From contig OZ241863.1 of NCBI GenBank assembly GCA_965203055.1, forward strand, positions 2,784,001 through 2,848,000: a stretch of DNA of 64,000 nt. Reading direction: 5' to 3'. Position 1 is the stretch's first letter. The number at the start of each line of letters is the position of its first letter. This DNA comes from Spirochaetia bacterium. GTDB lineage: Bacteria > Spirochaetota > Spirochaetia > SZUA-6 > Bin103. A program made the position numbers. Of the stretch, positions 18,001 to 24,000 are shown one piece after another.

Positions 18001-21000
18001 GCGGCGGGACTGGAGCCGGCAGCCGAAGAGTCGAGCAGCCGCGGGCGGGTCGACTTGGCGGTCCGGTACCGGGGCGCCGTCTATCTGTTCGAATTCAAGG
18101 TGGTGGAGCTGGAGCCCGAAGGCGCGGCGCTGGCGCAGTTGCGGGCGCGCGGCTACGCCGACAAGTACCGAGCTTCCGGGGAGCCGATCCACCTGATCGG
18201 GGTGGAGTTCAGCCGCGAGGCGCGCACCATCGCCGCCTTCGAGGTGGCCCGCGCCTGACGCCCCGCCCGAGCACCGTGGTTCGACTTCGAGCCGCCGGCG
18301 CCGGCAGCCGCGAGTCTGCCACGGAGATACCGGATAAGCTGTTTTGTAGGACCTTTGCGTTGACGAGCCGCCTGCGACCCGGGAACGCTGTGGGAAGGCA
18401 CGTGTCTGGCGCCGTGACGCTGCCGGAACAGGAGATCGCCCGTCTCCGCACGGCCAGTTCATCGCGGAGATTGCGGTGCCGGCCCGCACGGAGCCGAACG
18501 GGCGGTCAGCCTCCACCGGGTGACGTGCCGGTGTTCAGGGGAGGTTTACGTGAAGCAATGCCGGCAGCAAAATACAGCAAAGCGATGAAAAGCGATGCCG
18601 AGATGGTTGACACACATGGCAACACAAGGCATCCTGTCGCCGAACCGCCGAACCGCCGAACCGCCGAACCGCCCGCCGAACCGCCGAACCGCCGAACCGC
18701 CGAACCGCCGAACCGCCGAACCGCCGAACCGCCGAACCGCCGAACCGCCGAACCGCCGAACCGCCGAACCGCCGAACCGCCGAACCGCCGAACCGCCGAA
18801 CCGCCGAACCGCCGAACCGCCGAACCGCCGAACCGCCGAACCGCCGAACCGCCGAACCGCCGAACCGCCGAACCGCCGAACCGCCGAACCGCCGAACCGC
18901 CGACGGCGGTTGCCGTGGCGTGACGCGCTCGTCGCGCTGACGGCCTTCGCGGCGCTGGGCGCCGCCCTCCTCGACGACTACGGCGTGGCGTGGGACGAGG
19001 CCGTGCAGCGCAGCACCGGCTTGGCGGTAATCGCCTACGCGCTGGGTGACGGCGCCCTGCCGACAGACGACGACCGATACTACGGAGCCGCGTTCGAAGC
19101 GCCGCTGATCCTGGTCGAGCGGCTGCTCGGCCTCACCGACAGCCGCGCCGTCTACCTCAGCCGCCATCTGCTGACCCACCTGTTCTTCCTCACCGGCGGC
19201 TTCTTCTGCTGGCTGCTCGCCTTCCGCCTGTTCCGCGACCGCCGGCTGGCGCTGTTCGCCCTGCTGCTGTTCCTGCTGCAGCCCCGCCTGTACGCCCACT
19301 CCTTCTTCAACACCAAGGACATCCCCTTCCTGGTCATGTTCATGATCGCGCTCTATCTGACGCAGCGCGCCTTCCGCCGCGACACCGCCGCGGCGTTCGC
19401 GCTCTGCGGGCTGGGCGTGGGCGTGCTGGTCAACCTGCGCGTCATGGGCCTGCTGCTGTGCGCCGCGGTGCCGGCGCTGCGGGCGCTCGACCTGCTGCAG
19501 GCGCACGGGCCGGCGGAGCGGAGGCGCGCGCTGGCGACCGCCGGGGCGTTCCTGCTGGCCGCGGCGGCGGCCCTGTACGCGGTCTCGCCCCATCTCTGGC
19601 GCAACCCGCTTGAGCTGATCGACGCGGTCGTCACGCTTCCGCGCCATCGGGCCTACCTTCCGACGCTGTTTCAGGGCGAGCTGGTGCGCTGGCCTGAGAT
19701 TCCTCCGCACTACCTGCCGACCTGGATGGCGATCACCACGCCGCCGGCGGCGCTGCTGCTGAGCGTGGCCGGGATGGTCACCGTGCTCGCACGCGGCCTG
19801 ACCCGCCCGCGCGAGGTCCTCCGCAACACCCCGGTCACGCGCTTCGGGGCGCTGCTGGCCGCCTGTCCGGCGCTGTCGGTCGCGGCCGTCATCGCGGTAA
19901 ACGCCAACCTCTACGACGGCTGGCGGCACATGTATTTTCTGGCCGCCCCACTGTGCCTGCTGGCGGTCTACGGCCTGCGCCGGCTGCTGGCCGCCGCGCG
20001 CCGGCCGTGGCTGCGGCGCGGCGTCTACGCGCTGGCCGCGGCGGGCGTGGCCGCGGCCGCGGCCGAGATGGCGCTGATCCACCCGCATCAGATGGTGTAC
20101 TTCAACTTCCTGGTCGACCGCCGCACCCCCGAATACCTGCGCACCCGCTACGAGATGGAGTACTGGGGGCCGGCCTACCGCGAGGGGCTGGAGTATCTCC
20201 TCCGCCGCGCTCCGCAGGCCACCATCCACATTGTTGCGGCGAAGAACTGGAGGCGCGCTCTGCACGTTCTCGCCGCAGCCGAGCGCCGTCGAATTGTCAT
20301 CACCGACCGCGTGCACGACCCGCCGGACCATCACTACGTCATCACCAACCACAACACCGTCACCAATCATACTCGCGGCTATGAGCGCCGCAGCTTCCCG
20401 GTCTCGCCCGCGCTATATGCGCGCCGCGTCTACCACAACACCATCCTCACGGTGACCGCCCTCGACCCGGCGCAGCTCGACGCTGCGACCGTTGCGGACT
20501 TCCGGGAAGCGTACCGCGCCGCACGGTCGCGGGAGCCGGTCGCGGCGGAATCGGACTTCGACCTGTATCTCGACGGCACCACGCTGACCTACGTCAAGGA
20601 TGCCTGCCCGGTGGAAGACCTGGAGAGGAAGTTGTTCCTGCACGTCTTCCCGGCGGACGCCGCCGACCTGCCCGCCCACCAGCGGGAGTCGGGATTCGAC
20701 AATCTGGACTTCTACCTCTGGGAGGGCGGCATGCGGCTCGACGGCGCCTGCGTGGCGGTCGTGGCACTGCCCGACTACGAGTTCACCCGCATCCGTACCG
20801 GGCAACTCGCTGCGCGGGGCCGGCCCCAACTGTGGAGCGTGGAGTTCGCGGCCGGACCGACCGCGCAGCGCTATCGGGAGGCGCGCGCCGCTATCCGCTC
20901 CGGCGCCTGGGGAGCGCCGGCCGCCCGCGGAGCCTTCGACCTCTATCTCGACGAAACGGTGCTGGCGTATCACAAGGATCGGTGCGTGGCGGAGGACCTG

Positions 21001-24000
21001 CGGGCGCGGTTCTTCCTGCACGTGATTCCGGCGGACGCCGGCGACCTCTCCCCGCAAGACCGGCCGCACGGCTTCGAGAACCGGGACTTCGACTACCGGG
21101 AACACGGGGCGCGGCTCGGCGCGGCGTGCGTGGCGCTGGCGCCGTTGCCGGAGTATGGGATCGCCCGCCTCCGCACCGGCCAGTTCATCAGCGGCCAAGG
21201 CCAGCTCTGGAGCGCGGAGCTTGCGGCGCCGGCCGCGGCGCAGGGGCCATGAAAGCCGGGCGGATGAGCGGATGATAGCCGCGCGGCGTTCAGTCTATCA
21301 TGGCCGGGCCGTGACCGCGCCGCACCAAGACGCGCCCATGATGAGGAGGAAGCTGCCGACCGGCATCCAGACCTTCCGCAAGCTCCGCAAGGATGACTGC
21401 TACTACGTCGACAAGACCGCCTTCATCCTCAGCCTGGTACGGGGAGGCACGCACTACTTCCTGTCGCGCCCGCGCCGCTTCGGCAAGAGCCTGCTGGTCG
21501 ACACCATCAAGGAACTGTTCGAGGGCAGCGAGGAGCTGTTCCGCGGCCTGCACGTGCACGACCACTGGGAGTGGTCGAAACGCCGCCCGGTGGTGCGCCT
21601 CGACTTCGGCGGCGGCGACTACGCGGCGCCGGACGGCCTGCAAGAAGACCTGGCCGACCGGTTGACGGCGCTCGAAACGGCCGCCGGCGCGAGTGCGCGC
21701 AACGACTCCGCGCCGATTCGCTTCCGGCGCCTGCTGGAGGAGTTGCACCGGAGCGCCGGCAGGCGGGTAGCGGTGCTGATCGACGAGTACGACAAGCCGA
21801 TCCTGGACGCGCTGGGGACGCCGGCGATCGCGGCCGCCAACCGCCGCCTGCTGCGCAGCCTGTACTCGAACGTGAAGTTCGCCGACGCGCACATCCACTT
21901 CACGCTGCTCACCGGAGTGAGCAAGTTCTCCAAGGTCAGCGTCTTCTCCGGCCTCAACAACCTGATCGACCTCACCCTGGAACCGAAATTCTCGGCGATC
22001 TGCGGCTATACCGAGGCCGACCTCGACACGGTGTTCGCGGCGGAGTTGCCGGGCCTGGACCGGGAGGAGATCCGCGATTGGTACAACGGCTACAACTGGC
22101 GCGGTGACGATCGGGTCTACAACCCGTTCGACATTCTGCTGCTGTTCGACCGCCGGGAATTCGCCGCCCATTGGTTCGAGACCGGTACGCCGTCGTTTCT
22201 GATCGACATCCTGATCAAGCGCGGCGTCGCATCGCCCGAGCTGGACGGCATGTTGGCCGGCGGCGAGCTGCTGTCCGCGTTCGACGTGGAGGAGATGGAG
22301 CCTGAGGCGCTGCTGTTCCAGACCGGCTATCTGACCATCCGCAGCGTCGAGCACTCGGCGCGCGGACCGCGCTACCGGCTCGGCTACCCCAACCGCGAAG
22401 TGCGGCTCGCTCTGAACGAACGCCTGCTGCGGGCGCTGGCGCCCGCAGCAGCGCGCCGGCTGGCGCAGGACACGGCGTTGGAGCGGCTGCTGGCGGCGAA
22501 CGACTTCGCCGGGTTGGAGCGGCTGTTCCGGGCGTTCTTCGCCGGCATCCCGTACGAGTGGCACACGCGCAACGACATCGCGCGCTACGAGGGCTACTAC
22601 GCGAGTGTCTGCTACTCCTGGTTCGCGGCCGTGGGGCTGGACGTCACGGTGGAAGATTCGAGCAGCCGCGGGCGGGTCGATCTGGCGATGCGGTACCGAG
22701 GCAACGTCTATCTGTTCGAGTTCAAGGTGGTGGAGCTGGAGCCCGACGGGGCGGCGCTGGCGCAGTTGCGGGCGCGCGGCTACGCGGAGAAGTACCGCGG
22801 CCTGGGCGAACCGATCCACCTGATCGGCGTGGAGTTCAGCCGCACGACGCGCACCCTCGCCGCCTTTGAGGTGGCCCGCGCCTGACGCCCCGCCCCCGCG
22901 CCGACATGCCGATCGCCGGCCTCCGTACCGGCCAGTTCGTCAGCGGGCAGGGCCAGATCTGGAGCGCGGAGATTGCGGCGCCGGCCGCGGCGCAGGGGCC
23001 GTGAGGCCGGCGGATGATAGCGGCGCGCCGTTCGGCTATGATGGCCGGACCGTGACCGCGCCGCACCCAGACGCGCCATGACGCGCAGGAAGCCAGGAAG
23101 GGGCGCACTTCCAAAACGTAGGTAGCGTCAGGCGGCCTGTGGCTGGGCCTCCTGCGGCACCGAGGCGGACAGCAGGCTCGCGTAGTCCCTTTTGAACCGC
23201 CCGCTCTTCACCGAGGTGCAGAGCTGCAGCATCCCCTGCGCCCCTCCCAACGACCAGATCATCCCGCTCCCCTTCAGCCGCGCCCCCACCATGTTCTTGC
23301 ACGTACTCTCCACCGCCCCACTGCCGATCGGCAGCCCCTCCCGCCGGTACCGCCGGTAGTCCATCCGTCCCTGGTTGCTCTTCAAGTAGTTGATCTCCCC
23401 CTGCACCTCGTGCCGCTGCCGGGCACTCAACCCCCCGCCGTCGCGCAACTCCTCCAGCTCCTCTATCACTTCCCCCGCCCGACTGCCGCGCAGCATCGTC
23501 CGCCACCTCCGAAAGCATTCCTCTGCCTGCTTGCTCCTCTCCCCGTAGACGCTCCGACTCGCCTCCGCGAGATGCTCGCAGGCGTGCCAGAAATCCAGGA
23601 TGTACCACACCCGCAGCCCCCCTGCCGCCCAGGTCTCCGCCCGATCCCAAATCCATCCCGCCCCGTCGGCCAGCACTACCAGTTGCCGCGCCGCCCCCTC
23701 GCCGCAGCGCCGTTTCAGCTCCACTTCGATGCGCGGGAAGAACTGGTCGGCATGCTCGCTCGCCGCCACGTAGCTCGGCTTGCTGCTGCACTGCGCCTCC
23801 TGCTCCTCAGCGTCCCACTCCACCGCCGCCACCACCGCCACCTTGGCGTCCCGGTACTCCCGCTCGTAGCGCTTCTTCCCGGCATCATCTACCCGCTCCT
23901 TGCCGCGCACCGGCACCTTCCCCGCGTCGATGCATACCGCCACCGTCCCGCCAATCGGCTCGTGCAGCTCCGGCCCCGCCGCAGTCTGCTGGTAGTTGTC

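Follow-up and report, generated by a model that had tools for sequence, protein, structure and literature searches.

Non-triplet repeat arrays as candidate translational switches of glycosyltransferase and aryl-sulfotransferase genes in a sponge-associated Spirochaetia bacterium

Introduction

What does a bacterium gain from a long, perfect tandem array of an eight-nucleotide unit between the possible start codons of a gene and the first membrane helix of its enzyme? The question is raised by a stretch of 64,000 nucleotides (the window; positions 2,784,001 to 2,848,000 of contig OZ241863.1) in the genome of an uncultured, sponge-associated Spirochaetia bacterium. This genome (G000) is a single contig, denoted C1, of 4,557,819 bp with 68.8% G+C. 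Arrays of this kind appear to sit in the 5' coding part of genes for envelope or envelope-modifying proteins, namely three GT-C paralogs, one aryl-sulfotransferase and one Opa-like outer-membrane barrel. We propose, with a probability of about 0.68, that the arrays are simple-sequence contingency loci acting at translation. A gene would most likely turn on or off at random whenever a repeat is added or dropped, much as pathogens vary their coats. What is new is the host, the targets and the spread over phyla, the mechanism itself being classical.

Results

Three GT-C (PMT_2) glycosyltransferase genes, here called A, B and C, have a leader of about 120 nt in common. A preliminary description had placed a perfect (CCGAACCG)n array between the upstream starts and the first membrane helix of all three, and both TRF and the sequence confirm it. 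TRF reports array A as (CGCCGAAC)33.8 at window 18638-18903. At finer scale, 4 perfect CCGAACCG units occupy 18640-18671 and another 28, likewise perfect, occupy 18676-18899, with CCCG interrupting the series at 18672-18675. A whole-genome search located arrays B and C on the minus strand, with 22 perfect CCGAACCG copies (C1:2988110-2988287) and 19 perfect copies plus one partial (C1:2992975-2993139), respectively. The octamer is read as (PNRRTAEP)n in all three frames. Other PMT_2 paralogs hold 0-2 units rather than the 0-1 first given, the paralog at C1:2982949 having two.

Table 1. Features of the repeat-bearing loci in the window (window coordinates).
Feature	Position	Strand	Basis or detail
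Promoter-like site and ATG, ASST1 leader	9415..9456	+	TTGCCC-N18-TAGAAT at 9415-9444
Perfect TTGACA, 22 nt before heptamer array	9515..9520	+	
Heptamer array (ACCGCCG)12	9543..9626	+	TRF, 100% perfect
ASST1, aryl-sulfotransferase	9627..11717	+	Pfam PF05935, frames
ASST2, second aryl-sulfotransferase paralog	14670..16718	+	ASST1 leader, 3 octamer units (14799-14822)
GT-C gene A leader, alternative start codons	18558..18639	+	
Perfect TTGACA hexamer, 27 nt before array A	18607..18612	+	
Octamer array A	18640..18899	+	(CCGAACCG)4, CCCG, (CCGAACCG)28
GT-C (PMT_2) glycosyltransferase body	18910..21252	+	Pfam, alignment, AlphaFold2 model and Foldseek
PMT_2 paralog remnant	29910..30929	+	5' part lost: leader, array position and TM1 missing

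The enzyme body of gene A opens at the TTG of LPWRDAL, followed in the alignment by TM1 and an invariant DDYG. The open reading frame 18595-21252 matches Pfam PMT_2 with 36.2 bits against a cut-off of 26.1. With the AlphaFold2 model of the body as query, the matches that Foldseek lists with E up to 0.001 are all GT-C enzymes. Two tandem beta-sandwich domains are predicted at 20497-21249 by the C-terminal model.

The perfect (ACCGCCG)12 array described at the equivalent place of an aryl-sulfotransferase gene was likewise recovered by TRF. It is read as (TADRRPP)n in every frame, and the open reading frame behind it matches Arylsulfotrans (PF05935) with 87 bits. The N-terminus of this protein, ASST1, is signal-peptide-like (..SLSIAAAFIALGAALASA). 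On frame arithmetic, ASST1 now lies in the closed frame and is hence predicted to be OFF; 13 units bring ATG 9454 in phase, and 11 units bring TTG 9515 in phase. ATG 9454 (M-K-S-I-L...) lies 9 nt after TTGCCC-N18-TAGAAT and would be a near-leaderless start of the leader frame. The TTGACA at 9515-9520 opens one frame with its TTG and closes another, that of the enzyme, with its TGA (9516-9518). In ASST2, it is the TTG of TTGACA with which the enzyme is in phase.

The same plan recurs in a third family, elsewhere in the genome. This Opa-like gene encodes a protein of the Opacity/OMP beta-barrel family (Pfam PF13505, PF02462) and carries a (GCTCAACC) array of about 15 units. Its Shine-Dalgarno site, AAGGAG, is followed after 5 nt by an ATG that directly abuts (GCTCAACC)15.5. 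The locus also holds TTGACA-N18-TAAGAT, a 10/12 promoter match with 0.0 expected in shuffles, of which the -10 box TAAGAT overlaps the ATG.

In the leader of gene A, the starts ATG 18595, TTG 18607 and ATG 18616 are currently in phase with the enzyme. ATG 18558, 18585 and 18603 open a second frame, and the third is closed by the TGA within TTGACA. All five octamer arrays examined (three in G000, two in the independently assembled relative OZ241907.1, G011) have ATG or TTG starts in two upstream frames and one closed frame, and the heptamer locus has the same design. A single conserved start, as previously proposed, is thus not what the leaders hold. Because two of three frames have starts and the third is closed, the switch is probably three-state. 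The C ortholog of G011 and the database protein P0002 are in phase with the other frame, of the type M-K-...-G-N-T-R-H-P-V-A. Substitutions in the leader are few. The TTGACA at 18607-18612 may be a -35 box, or a TTG start and a TGA stop in neighbouring frames. A conserved promoter and a conserved start had been proposed together, which is incompatible as written: TTGACA lies 3 nt before the proposed ATG, and transcripts directed by a -35 box at this place would begin only after that codon.

From ATG 18616, gene A reads in frame over 297 nt to the P-W of LPWRDAL. In B and C the equivalent ATG does not share the frame of the enzyme, which lacks an upstream start, and the frame arithmetic agrees with the earlier account on all three genes. 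With one unit added or removed, B, C and ASST1 each come into phase with a start. The closed frame is occupied in three of the six arrays of known state, near the 1 in 3 expected if frame were irrelevant, a point against the switch. The bodies of the out-of-phase genes B and C are open over 775 and 787 codons, and their pN/pS values against the G011 orthologs are 0.37 and 0.33. Both genes are under purifying selection. Intact out-of-frame genes with pN/pS of about 0.35 support switching by frame.

We searched for starts behind the arrays. In-frame ATG, GTG or TTG codons between array and mid-TM1 are absent from three of the five octamer arrays (C, its G011 ortholog and the G011 ortholog of B). 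In both genomes, ASST1 is free of them from the array through the signal-peptide-like segment, and the OMP gene has none between array and signal-peptide-like segment. The two-unit paralog carries an in-frame GTG at the homologous place (M-A-I-L-L-S-N-R-R-T-A-G-L-P-W-R-D). This GTG, the lack of starts behind most arrays and the canonical start before the OMP array all argue for translation through the repeats. Folded as RNA, the stretch that holds array A (18558-18960) has less structure than each of 100 shuffles (z +3.9), which also supports that reading. Other observations count against a switch. Behind arrays A and B, an in-frame TTG stands at the L of LPWRDAL and is used by gene callers (P0004 starts MPWRDAL); it could give constitutive, tail-less expression. 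Moreover, a good Shine-Dalgarno sequence was found at none of the upstream GT-C gene starts.

Comparing G000 with G011, we notice that array B has 22 units in the former and 11 in the latter, and the heptamer 12 and 15, while the 1 kb flanks are 94-99% identical. Unit-number differences within such flanks favour frame switching. The earlier statement that copy number changes faster than substitutions stands for B and the heptamer and fails for C: both genomes have 19 perfect units there, and the true change is a 1-nt indel at the 5' edge of the array. Where array A counts 32 units, P0002 has about 9, at 91% identity along the N-terminal part that aligns. The core of the earlier proposal, that copy number sets the frame and switches the genes reversibly, gains comparative support from these data; the parts to be revised are its single start, its pairing of promoter and start, and its copy-number change in C.

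Homologs in other genomes and phyla carry poly-C or poly-G tracts, which again points to frame switching. In a Gammaproteobacteria MAG, C20, C22 and C28 precede TM1 in three of four paralogs, and a Dehalococcoidia MAG homolog has a C14 tract. A Binatia MAG carries G9 at about codon 140-155 in all four matched paralogs; neighbouring copies of the same loci show G9, G12 or G14 in identical sequence context. A paralog of genomes G010 and G012 has an internal G41 versus G21, and an aryl-sulfotransferase homolog of G010 has an internal G20.

Discussion

On the basis of this anatomy, slipped-strand gain or loss of one unit at replication would shift the enzyme body relative to fixed upstream starts, because neither 8 nor 7 nt can be divided by three. 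As the unit number changes, each gene would then pass through one OFF state and two ON states, the latter not necessarily equal. The array peptides PNRRTAEP, TADRRPP and AQPLNRST are proline-rich, lack hydrophobic residues and have a net charge of +1 per unit in every frame. They would merely extend the cytoplasmic N-terminal tail ahead of TM1 or the signal peptide. The population is expected to be mixed for which surface-glycan-modifying enzymes are produced.

The arrays might instead be 5' untranslated leaders of variable length, in which unit number sets no frame and tunes expression gradually, a possibility that we consider unlikely. TTGACA would be the -35 box, with a weak -10 box (CATCCT, TACAAA or TAAGAT) 17-18 nt behind it; transcription would start in the first units, and array length would tune transcription, mRNA stability or translation. 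Every array is indeed preceded by a perfect TTGACA at a distance of 22-28 nt, and the leaders concerned are of three unrelated kinds (GT-C, aryl-sulfotransferase and OMP). The hexamer occurs 458 times genome-wide on both strands, and by our own arithmetic the chance that three leaders share it in that range is ~1e-10. The promoter match at the OMP locus, if used, would start transcripts inside the array without the upstream starts; elsewhere in the genome, GGTTGACAC sites seem to lie between genes and to resemble promoters, and the upstream GT-C starts without Shine-Dalgarno sequences fit an untranslated leader as well. However, most arrays lack a canonical in-frame start before the hydrophobic segment, so that transcripts from such a promoter could not yield protein. 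Also against a tuning leader are the canonical AAGGAG-N5-ATG before the OMP array and the two-unit paralog with its in-frame start. A promoter scan finds nothing at array A, and the promoter that it reports for ASST1 is another one, lying more upstream (9415-9444).

That the arrays are neutral expansions, the selfish or accidental growth of a short motif duplicated in an island prone to recombination, seems quite improbable to us. The out-of-phase genes would then be young pseudogenes, which their intact frames and pN/pS of 0.33-0.37 speak against, and the family association would reflect duplication of one leader cassette. The three GT-C arrays are indeed paralogs with one leader and thus represent one origin, not three, but the aryl-sulfotransferase and OMP genes share the plan despite unrelated units and leaders. 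Transposases and repeated PF09820 genes crowd the island, one PMT_2 paralog is a remnant without its 5' part that adjoins transposase genes, and arrays of CCGAACCG occur in 64 unrelated metagenome loci, all as neutral growth would have it. Against this, perfection over 19-28 units argues for continuing turnover, and homologs in other phyla carry other slippery tracts. Long perfect repeats are also prone to length miscalls, yet it is hardly credible that long-read assembly produced the arrays, or their lengths, as an artefact. The same arrays stand at the same sites in G011, an array is present in P0002, which is predicted from a third assembly, and the leader is covered up to the array edge by short Logan contigs from four runs, each of a different study, which break there.

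Translational switching of this kind has known relatives. In Neisseria opa genes, (CTCTT)n is part of the sequence that codes for the signal peptide, and its frame decides between ON and OFF. Here, too, the repeat lies between start and mature protein and would be translated in the leader, at the OMP locus directly behind the ATG; the unit length and the organism differ, and the peptide is charged and proline-rich instead of hydrophobic.

The passages on Haemophilus influenzae licA (lic1) in PMC2212159 describe a translational switch by (CAAT)n with starts in two of three frames. Judged by these passages, the likeness extends to a non-triplet repeat at the 5' end of the open reading frame, a unit number that aligns upstream starts with the body, and a target that modifies a surface glycan (PMC2212159). 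Unlike in licA, the unit here has 8 or 7 nt, not 4, and arrays reach 32 units; the bacterium is sponge-associated and uncultured, and the genes concerned would switch GT-C transferases and an aryl-sulfotransferase. At H. influenzae hmw1A/hmw2A, according to the portions of PMC2651432 and PMC3309571 that bear on them, 7- and 8-nt repeats in the promoter region modulate transcription gradually, and repeat types at one gene differ among strains. These repeats resemble ours in unit lengths of 7 and 8 nt, in copy numbers (12-38) and in going with surface-protein genes. They are the model for a tuning leader, whereas the anatomy here points to translated repeats.

As far as the relevant part of PMC2909390 describes them, the gtr operons of Salmonella and phage P22 encode GtrC-type membrane transferases that modify O-antigen and phase-vary via Dam and OxyR. 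Shared with them would be the stochastic on/off switching of horizontally acquired membrane glycosyltransferases that act on a surface glycan with a lipid-linked donor, and the several paralogous loci per genome. In contrast, the gtr switch is epigenetic, not repeat slippage (PMC2909390).

Other slippery sequences are present in this genome. The earlier count of only 11 short non-triplet repeats depends on the threshold: a lenient TRF search gives 94 rows, about 10 of them non-homopolymer rows with at least 95% matches. G or C homopolymers of at least 10 nt number 37. G/C runs of at least 12 nt number 27, and at least 12 of these 27 are found close to the 5' end of a long open frame.

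Octamer and heptamer arrays upstream of the gene bodies

The genome under study (G000) is a single contig, C1, of 4,557,819 bp with 68.8% G+C. The preliminary description had placed octamer arrays before GT-C (PMT_2) glycosyltransferase genes and a heptamer array before an aryl-sulfotransferase gene, and both the unit counts and the Pfam matches bear this out. The three octamer arrays and their genes are referred to as A, B and C, and the aryl-sulfotransferase gene behind the heptamer array as ASST1. Repeat units of 8 and 7 nt sit between upstream start codons and either the first membrane helix (TM1) or the signal peptide. 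The tracts are long and pure, with perfect runs of 12, 19, 22 and 28 units in the heptamer array, C, B and A, respectively; PMC7383803 sets the instability criterion for tetra- to octanucleotides at three units or more.

Positions of the arrays and associated features (L-numbers are fetched loci)
Feature	Position	Description
Array A	window 18640-18899	4 perfect CCGAACCG units, 4-nt interruption CCCG, 28 further perfect units
Array B	C1:2988110-2988287, minus strand	22 perfect CCGAACCG copies; outside the window
Array C	C1:2992975-2993139, minus strand	19 perfect CCGAACCG copies; outside the window
Heptamer array (ASST1)	window 9543-9626	(ACCGCCG)12, perfect
Outer-membrane barrel array	C1:1804096-1804219	(GCTCAACC)15.5; the genome's one further long, perfect array of non-triplet units
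Outer-membrane barrel locus	C1:1804096-1804991 (L143:496-1391)	outside the window
TTGACA sites	window 18607-18612, 9515-9520; L143:465-470; C1:2988313 and C1:2993165 region	
PF09820/PF08011 genes	window 13022-14599, 16655-18196, 21155-22885, 24714-26372	
Poly-G tracts of genomes G010/G012	L041:15273-15313, L038:9826-9846, L040:9162-9181	

A leader of about 120 nt is common to all three GT-C arrays, and it is A- and C-rich, which is unusual for a G+C-rich genome. We listed every start and stop codon in the three frames upstream of five octamer arrays, three in G000 and two in the compared genome G011 (OZ241907.1). All five share one pattern, in which two frames contain start codons and the third is closed by a stop and has no start. 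The first frame holds an ATG AAA... and the TTG of a TTGACA element, giving peptides of the type M-K-M-P-S-R-L-T-P-Y-G-N-T-R-H-P-V-A, and the second holds an ATG 24 nt ahead of the array (M-A-I-R-G-I-L-S). The earlier proposal that unit number switches the reading frame keeps its core, and the starts in two frames and closure of the third are among the details corrected here.

In array A the TTGACA-to-ATG spacing is one base shorter than in the other octamer leaders, so that ATG 18595, TTG 18607 and ATG 18616 share the enzyme's present frame; the second frame contains ATG 18558, 18585 and 18603. The enzyme of A is in phase with upstream starts. The closed frame is the present state of B and C in G000 and of the G011 ortholog of B, whereas the G011 ortholog of C matches the M-K-M-P frame. 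A third assembly contributes the database protein P0002, with about 9 units and 91% identity to A across the aligned N-terminal part; it is called from an M-R-C-D-A-E-V-V-D-T-H-G-N-T-R-H-P start, in a frame of the M-K-M-P kind. By frame arithmetic, each closed gene would regain phase with a start upon gain or loss of one unit. With a non-triplet unit inside an open reading frame, long tracts and a unit number differing between related genomes, these loci qualify on sequence grounds as predicted SSR-mediated phase-variation loci.

Since 8 and 7 have no factor in common with 3, each array encodes one cyclic peptide in all frames, PNRRTAEP for the octamer and TADRRPP for the heptamer. Both are proline-rich, lack hydrophobic residues and carry a net charge of +1 per unit. 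Given the positive-inside rule and the known topology of GT-C enzymes, such a tail should be harmless ahead of an N-in first membrane helix or a signal peptide. As a Tat motif, the RR of these peptides was rejected by eye, with no hydrophobic residues following it.

The aryl-sulfotransferase and outer-membrane loci

The two aryl-sulfotransferase paralogs in the window match PF05935 (Arylsulfotrans) at 87.2 bits for ASST1 and 84.7 bits for ASST2 (cut-off 24.2). The translation of ASST1 contains a hydrophobic stretch ending in A-S-A, which appears signal-peptide-like when read by eye. Its leader has the three-frame design of the GT-C leaders: the first frame carries ATG 9454 and GTG 9535 (M-K-S-I-L-...), the second carries TTG 9515, and the third, the enzyme's present frame, is closed by TGA 9516-9518 within TTGACA. 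ASST1 would therefore be OFF at the 12 units of G000 and likewise at the 15 units of G011, and by frame arithmetic 13 units would bring it into phase with ATG 9454. ASST2 (14670-16718) has a leader like that of ASST1 with only three octamer units, and its enzyme is in phase with the TTG of TTGACA.

A promoter scan of ASST1 returned TTGCCC-N18-TAGAAT at 9415-9444, ending 9 nt ahead of ATG 9454, an arrangement that suggests near-leaderless messages at the aryl-sulfotransferase leaders. At ASST1 such a message would account for the absent Shine-Dalgarno site. The 3' end of the 16S rRNA carries CCUCC, and a 4-mer Shine-Dalgarno core accompanies only 24% of crude first-ATG starts versus 16% in the background, so the lack of such a site carries little weight. 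TAGAAT is found 9 nt ahead of ATG AAA TCG in both aryl-sulfotransferase leaders (window 9439-9456, 14700-14720). In the GT-C leader of A, a CAAAAT is followed after 11 nt by ATG AAA, which resembles this arrangement.

At the outer-membrane barrel locus, the array abuts AAGGAG-ATAAG-ATG, and downstream lie a signal-peptide-like segment and an open frame of 256 residues matching OMP_b-brl, Surface_Ag_2 and Opacity. The frame of the ATG meets a stop just after the array, so this gene would be OFF now; one unit fewer would restore the frame by the same arithmetic. The locus resembles the opa genes of Neisseria and is a predicted Opa-like switch in G000. Judged by its sequence, it makes the clearest case for translation of such arrays in this organism.

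Translated array or transcript leader

The main rival to a translated array is that the array forms the 5' leader of the transcript and acts as a 'volume control'. A perfect TTGACA, mostly as GGTTGACAC, stands 22-28 nt ahead of every array in three unrelated leaders, and this placement is not chance because the genome holds only 458 TTGACA on both strands, below the 642 expected from base composition. With TTGACA as a -35 box, the matching -10 box would lie directly against the array, and transcripts would start within the first units and lack every upstream start. The scan at the outer-membrane locus speaks for such a promoter, as TTGACA-N18-TAAGAT scores 10/12 there and overlaps the ATG, whereas the same scan around GT-C array A finds nothing. 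TTGACA additionally gives one frame a TTG start and the following frame a TGA stop; this may or may not be what it is there for. On the side of translation, the RNA of 18558-18960, which holds array A, is less structured than 100 of 100 shuffles (z +3.9).

Transcription from the first units would need start codons downstream of the array, and these are absent behind most arrays. In three of the five octamer arrays, namely C and the two of G011, no in-frame ATG, GTG or TTG occurs from the array to mid-TM1. ASST1 has no in-frame start from the array to the end of the signal-peptide-like segment in either genome, nor does the outer-membrane gene from its array to the corresponding segment. Only in A and B is the L of LPWRDAL encoded by a TTG that lies in frame, and the paralog at C1:2982949 (protein P0009), with just two units, has an in-frame GTG at the homologous place. 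As we could not reconcile the TTGACA placement with the missing downstream starts, we keep the leader model as the main rival to the translated array.

We also examined start-frame choice through leader substitutions, comparing A with B, B and C with their orthologs, and a variant from the public sequencing run X1, with few sites in each. A and B differ by two changes that leave the peptide of the M-K-..-G-N-T-R-H-P frame unaltered but would be non-synonymous if the M-A-[TI]-[QR] frame were coding. The other comparisons are mixed and, with too few sites, do not single out a coding frame.

Array length and gene retention

Between G000 and G011, the 1 kb on each side of the arrays is 94-99% identical, and the unit numbers are 22 versus 11 in B and 12 versus 15 in the heptamer array. 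Array C has 19 units in both genomes, unchanged except for a 1-nt indel at its edge. Array A has about 32 units versus about 9 in P0002. The bodies of the out-of-phase B and C genes are open over 775 and 787 codons, and their pN/pS values against the G011 orthologs are 0.37 and 0.33. These values fit genes that would be used part-time rather than decaying pseudogenes.

Parts of the stretch occur in public runs (20 rows from 8 studies) of sponge or marine metagenomes or coded organisms, and none of the runs so listed is RNA. Four runs were compared over 17800-18645, which ends 6 nt into array A, using Logan contigs, which are k-mer-based and break at the array. The Logan pieces on the leader are 60-265 nt long with paralogs mixed in, and unit numbers cannot be counted from them; one X1 contig carries a variant leader matching P0002. 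A metagenome scan with four octamer units returned 64 loci, none with a GT-C leader or a PWRDA/DDYG body beside the array. We rejected these loci as members of the system, the octamer as such being a common low-complexity repeat.

Predicted structure of the GT-C enzymes

The gene behind array A matches Pfam PMT_2 (PF13231) at 36.2 bits (cut-off 26.1). The profile gives 12 matches above cut-off in the whole genome, and about ten close paralogs are grouped in two islands, one at 2.78-2.81 Mb and the other at 2.94-2.99 Mb. Neither the GT-C enzyme nor ASST1 has an NCBIfam match, and in a sequence search the GT-C enzyme matched no PDB chain at E up to 1.

For residues 1-497 of enzyme A, AlphaFold2 gave a model with a pLDDT of 76 and a pTM of 0.79. 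At E<=0.001, the 15 Foldseek matches listed (16 counted) are all GT-C-class oligosaccharyltransferases (STT3, AglB); weaker matches include ArnT, AftA/B/D, ALG9/12, PglB, Emb and Pmt4. TM-scores are about 0.4-0.5. The model thus predicts a multi-helix GT-C membrane fold for enzyme A. All 20 aligned homologs share D22-D23-Y24-G25 right after TM1, and by analogy with known GT-C enzymes this may be the catalytic acidic motif of the first extracytoplasmic loop. The last 250 residues (window 20497-21249) were modelled as a tandem pair of beta-sandwich domains, whose structural matches are all of a generic Ig/FnIII-like kind.

GT-C enzymes transfer sugars from lipid-linked donors to acceptors at the outer face of the cytoplasmic membrane. 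Independent switching of several paralogs would generate combinatorial variation of a surface glycan. The outcome would be comparable to that of the phase-variable gtr operons of Salmonella (PMC2909390).

The island and its probable exchange

Besides the GT-C and aryl-sulfotransferase genes, the island encodes a GT2 transferase, a Sulfotransfer_2 protein, a UbiA-family prenyltransferase and a sulfatase. A Gtr-like three-part system would comprise a small flippase (GtrA), a GT2 polyprenyl-phosphate sugar synthase (GtrB) and the GT-C enzyme as GtrC; the comparison with such a system covered the GT2 and UbiA-family genes. The GT2 gene (window 594-2435) matches PF00535, but in NCBIfam its highest-scoring profiles are of EPS type and stay under their cut-offs. 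The enzyme genes alternate with PF09820 AAA-ATPase-like/PF08011 PDDEXK_9 family genes (window 13022-26372), and these repeated spacers may drive paralog shuffling. Transposase genes of the island include YhgA-like, UPF0236, and rve plus AAA_22.

A control stretch (window 44000-62000) shows synteny with G010, a member of the same genus, at 84-91% nucleotide identity, and no synteny with G011, which belongs to another genus. In the GT-C/aryl-sulfotransferase island, in contrast, G000 and G011 are 94-99% identical, and the G010 paralogs reach only about 60% in protein. By this comparison with one control region, the island looks horizontally exchanged.

The GT-C family and its tracts in other genomes

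The GT-C family was found in 5 of 40 other genomes searched among relatives and, at 45-60% identity, in MAGs labelled Binatia, Dehalococcoidia, Tepidiformaceae, Longimicrobiales, Gammaproteobacteria and 'Candidatus Azophilus'. In a 1.8-Mb Gammaproteobacteria MAG, three of the four fetched paralogs have a poly-C tract (C20, C22 and C28) 40-70 nt ahead of the sequence that codes for TM1, and the fourth has an interrupted C5TCTC4. This MAG seems to be rich in slippery tracts as well, because it gives 252 overlapping pattern matches for C or G runs of at least 14. The Dehalococcoidia locus has C14 at the same place. All four matched paralogs of the Binatia MAG OZ241744.1 (L070, L072, L074, L075) carry G9 at about codon 140-155, and neighbouring copies at the same loci have G9, G12 or G14 in the same context (..A-W-Q-R-G-G..). 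Within the C-terminal domain of one GT-C paralog, G010 has G41 and G012 has G21 between otherwise identical flanks, the gene being out of frame in both genomes; a G20 lies inside an aryl-sulfotransferase homolog of G010.

These loci may represent one horizontally spread GT-C family in sponge symbionts of at least four phylum-level lineages (that of G000, labelled Spirochaetia in the public record of G011, Gammaproteobacteria, Dehalococcoidia and Binatia), each having brought it independently under its own hypermutable repeats, namely N-terminal octamers, poly-C at the 5' end or poly-G inside the gene. We regard this reading as tentative and give it a probability of roughly one in three.

Relation to known systems and significance

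The legend of figure 6 in PMC2212159 describes initiation codons upstream of the repeat in two of three frames for licA (lic1) of Haemophilus influenzae, and this design is matched by all five octamer arrays and the heptamer locus. PMC2651432, PMC3309571 and PMC7383803 already name hepta- and octanucleotide repeats among the candidates for mediating phase variation; the mechanism is therefore of a known kind. That one gene family carries differing repeat types in different lineages, as here, is also what PMC2651432 describes for the Haemophilus hmw genes. What is new is the host, an uncultured sponge-associated bacterium, together with the targets and the recurrence across phyla. In full-text searches of a limited literature collection, no paper was found in which sponge symbionts or MAGs are connected with phase variation or contingency loci.

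If the reading holds, this bacterium would randomly vary which of about ten GT-C paralogs, sulfotransferases and one outer-membrane protein it makes, and unrelated co-resident symbionts would appear to vary the same enzyme family likewise. Phase variation by slippery repeats is textbook knowledge for the small-genome pathogens Haemophilus, Neisseria and Campylobacter, and random sugar-coat switching is known so far mainly from pathogens. To our knowledge, slippery-repeat phase variation is hardly documented in uncultured mutualists or commensals of invertebrates. On the tentative reading of a horizontally spread family, bacteria living in a filter-feeding animal would need such switching quite generally, possibly to escape phagocytosis, lectins or phages, and the carrier island would move between genera. 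The switching predicted here would offer a concrete, testable handle on symbiont persistence in a bacteria-eating animal. For annotation, it would also mean that a gene in such a MAG that looks 'truncated' or has an odd start may be an allele in the OFF state rather than an error.

Other repeats and rearranged copies

G000 contains 37 G or C homopolymers of at least 10 nt, up to C26. Of the 27 runs reaching at least 12 nt, at least 12 are found no more than about 110 nt from the upstream end of an open frame that is long and high in GC3, and one of these, a G18 at 1429985, precedes an open frame of 18 kb. In another paralog, the 9-nt unit AACCGCCGC is repeated five times in G011 (L033:4922-4965) and about twice at the matching N-terminal position in G000 (C1:2980300); this difference is in-frame length variation, not frame switching.

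The C-terminal beta-sandwich domains have conserved cysteines and no Pfam match. Copies of them occur in many other open frames of G000, G010-G012, G014 and G015, with at least five in one 1345-residue frame of G014. At window 29910-30929 lies a GT-C paralog missing exactly the leader, the array site and the first 50 codons, where the upstream conserved segment is joined to ..RYYGAAFEAPL.. and a Mu-like transposase adjoins.
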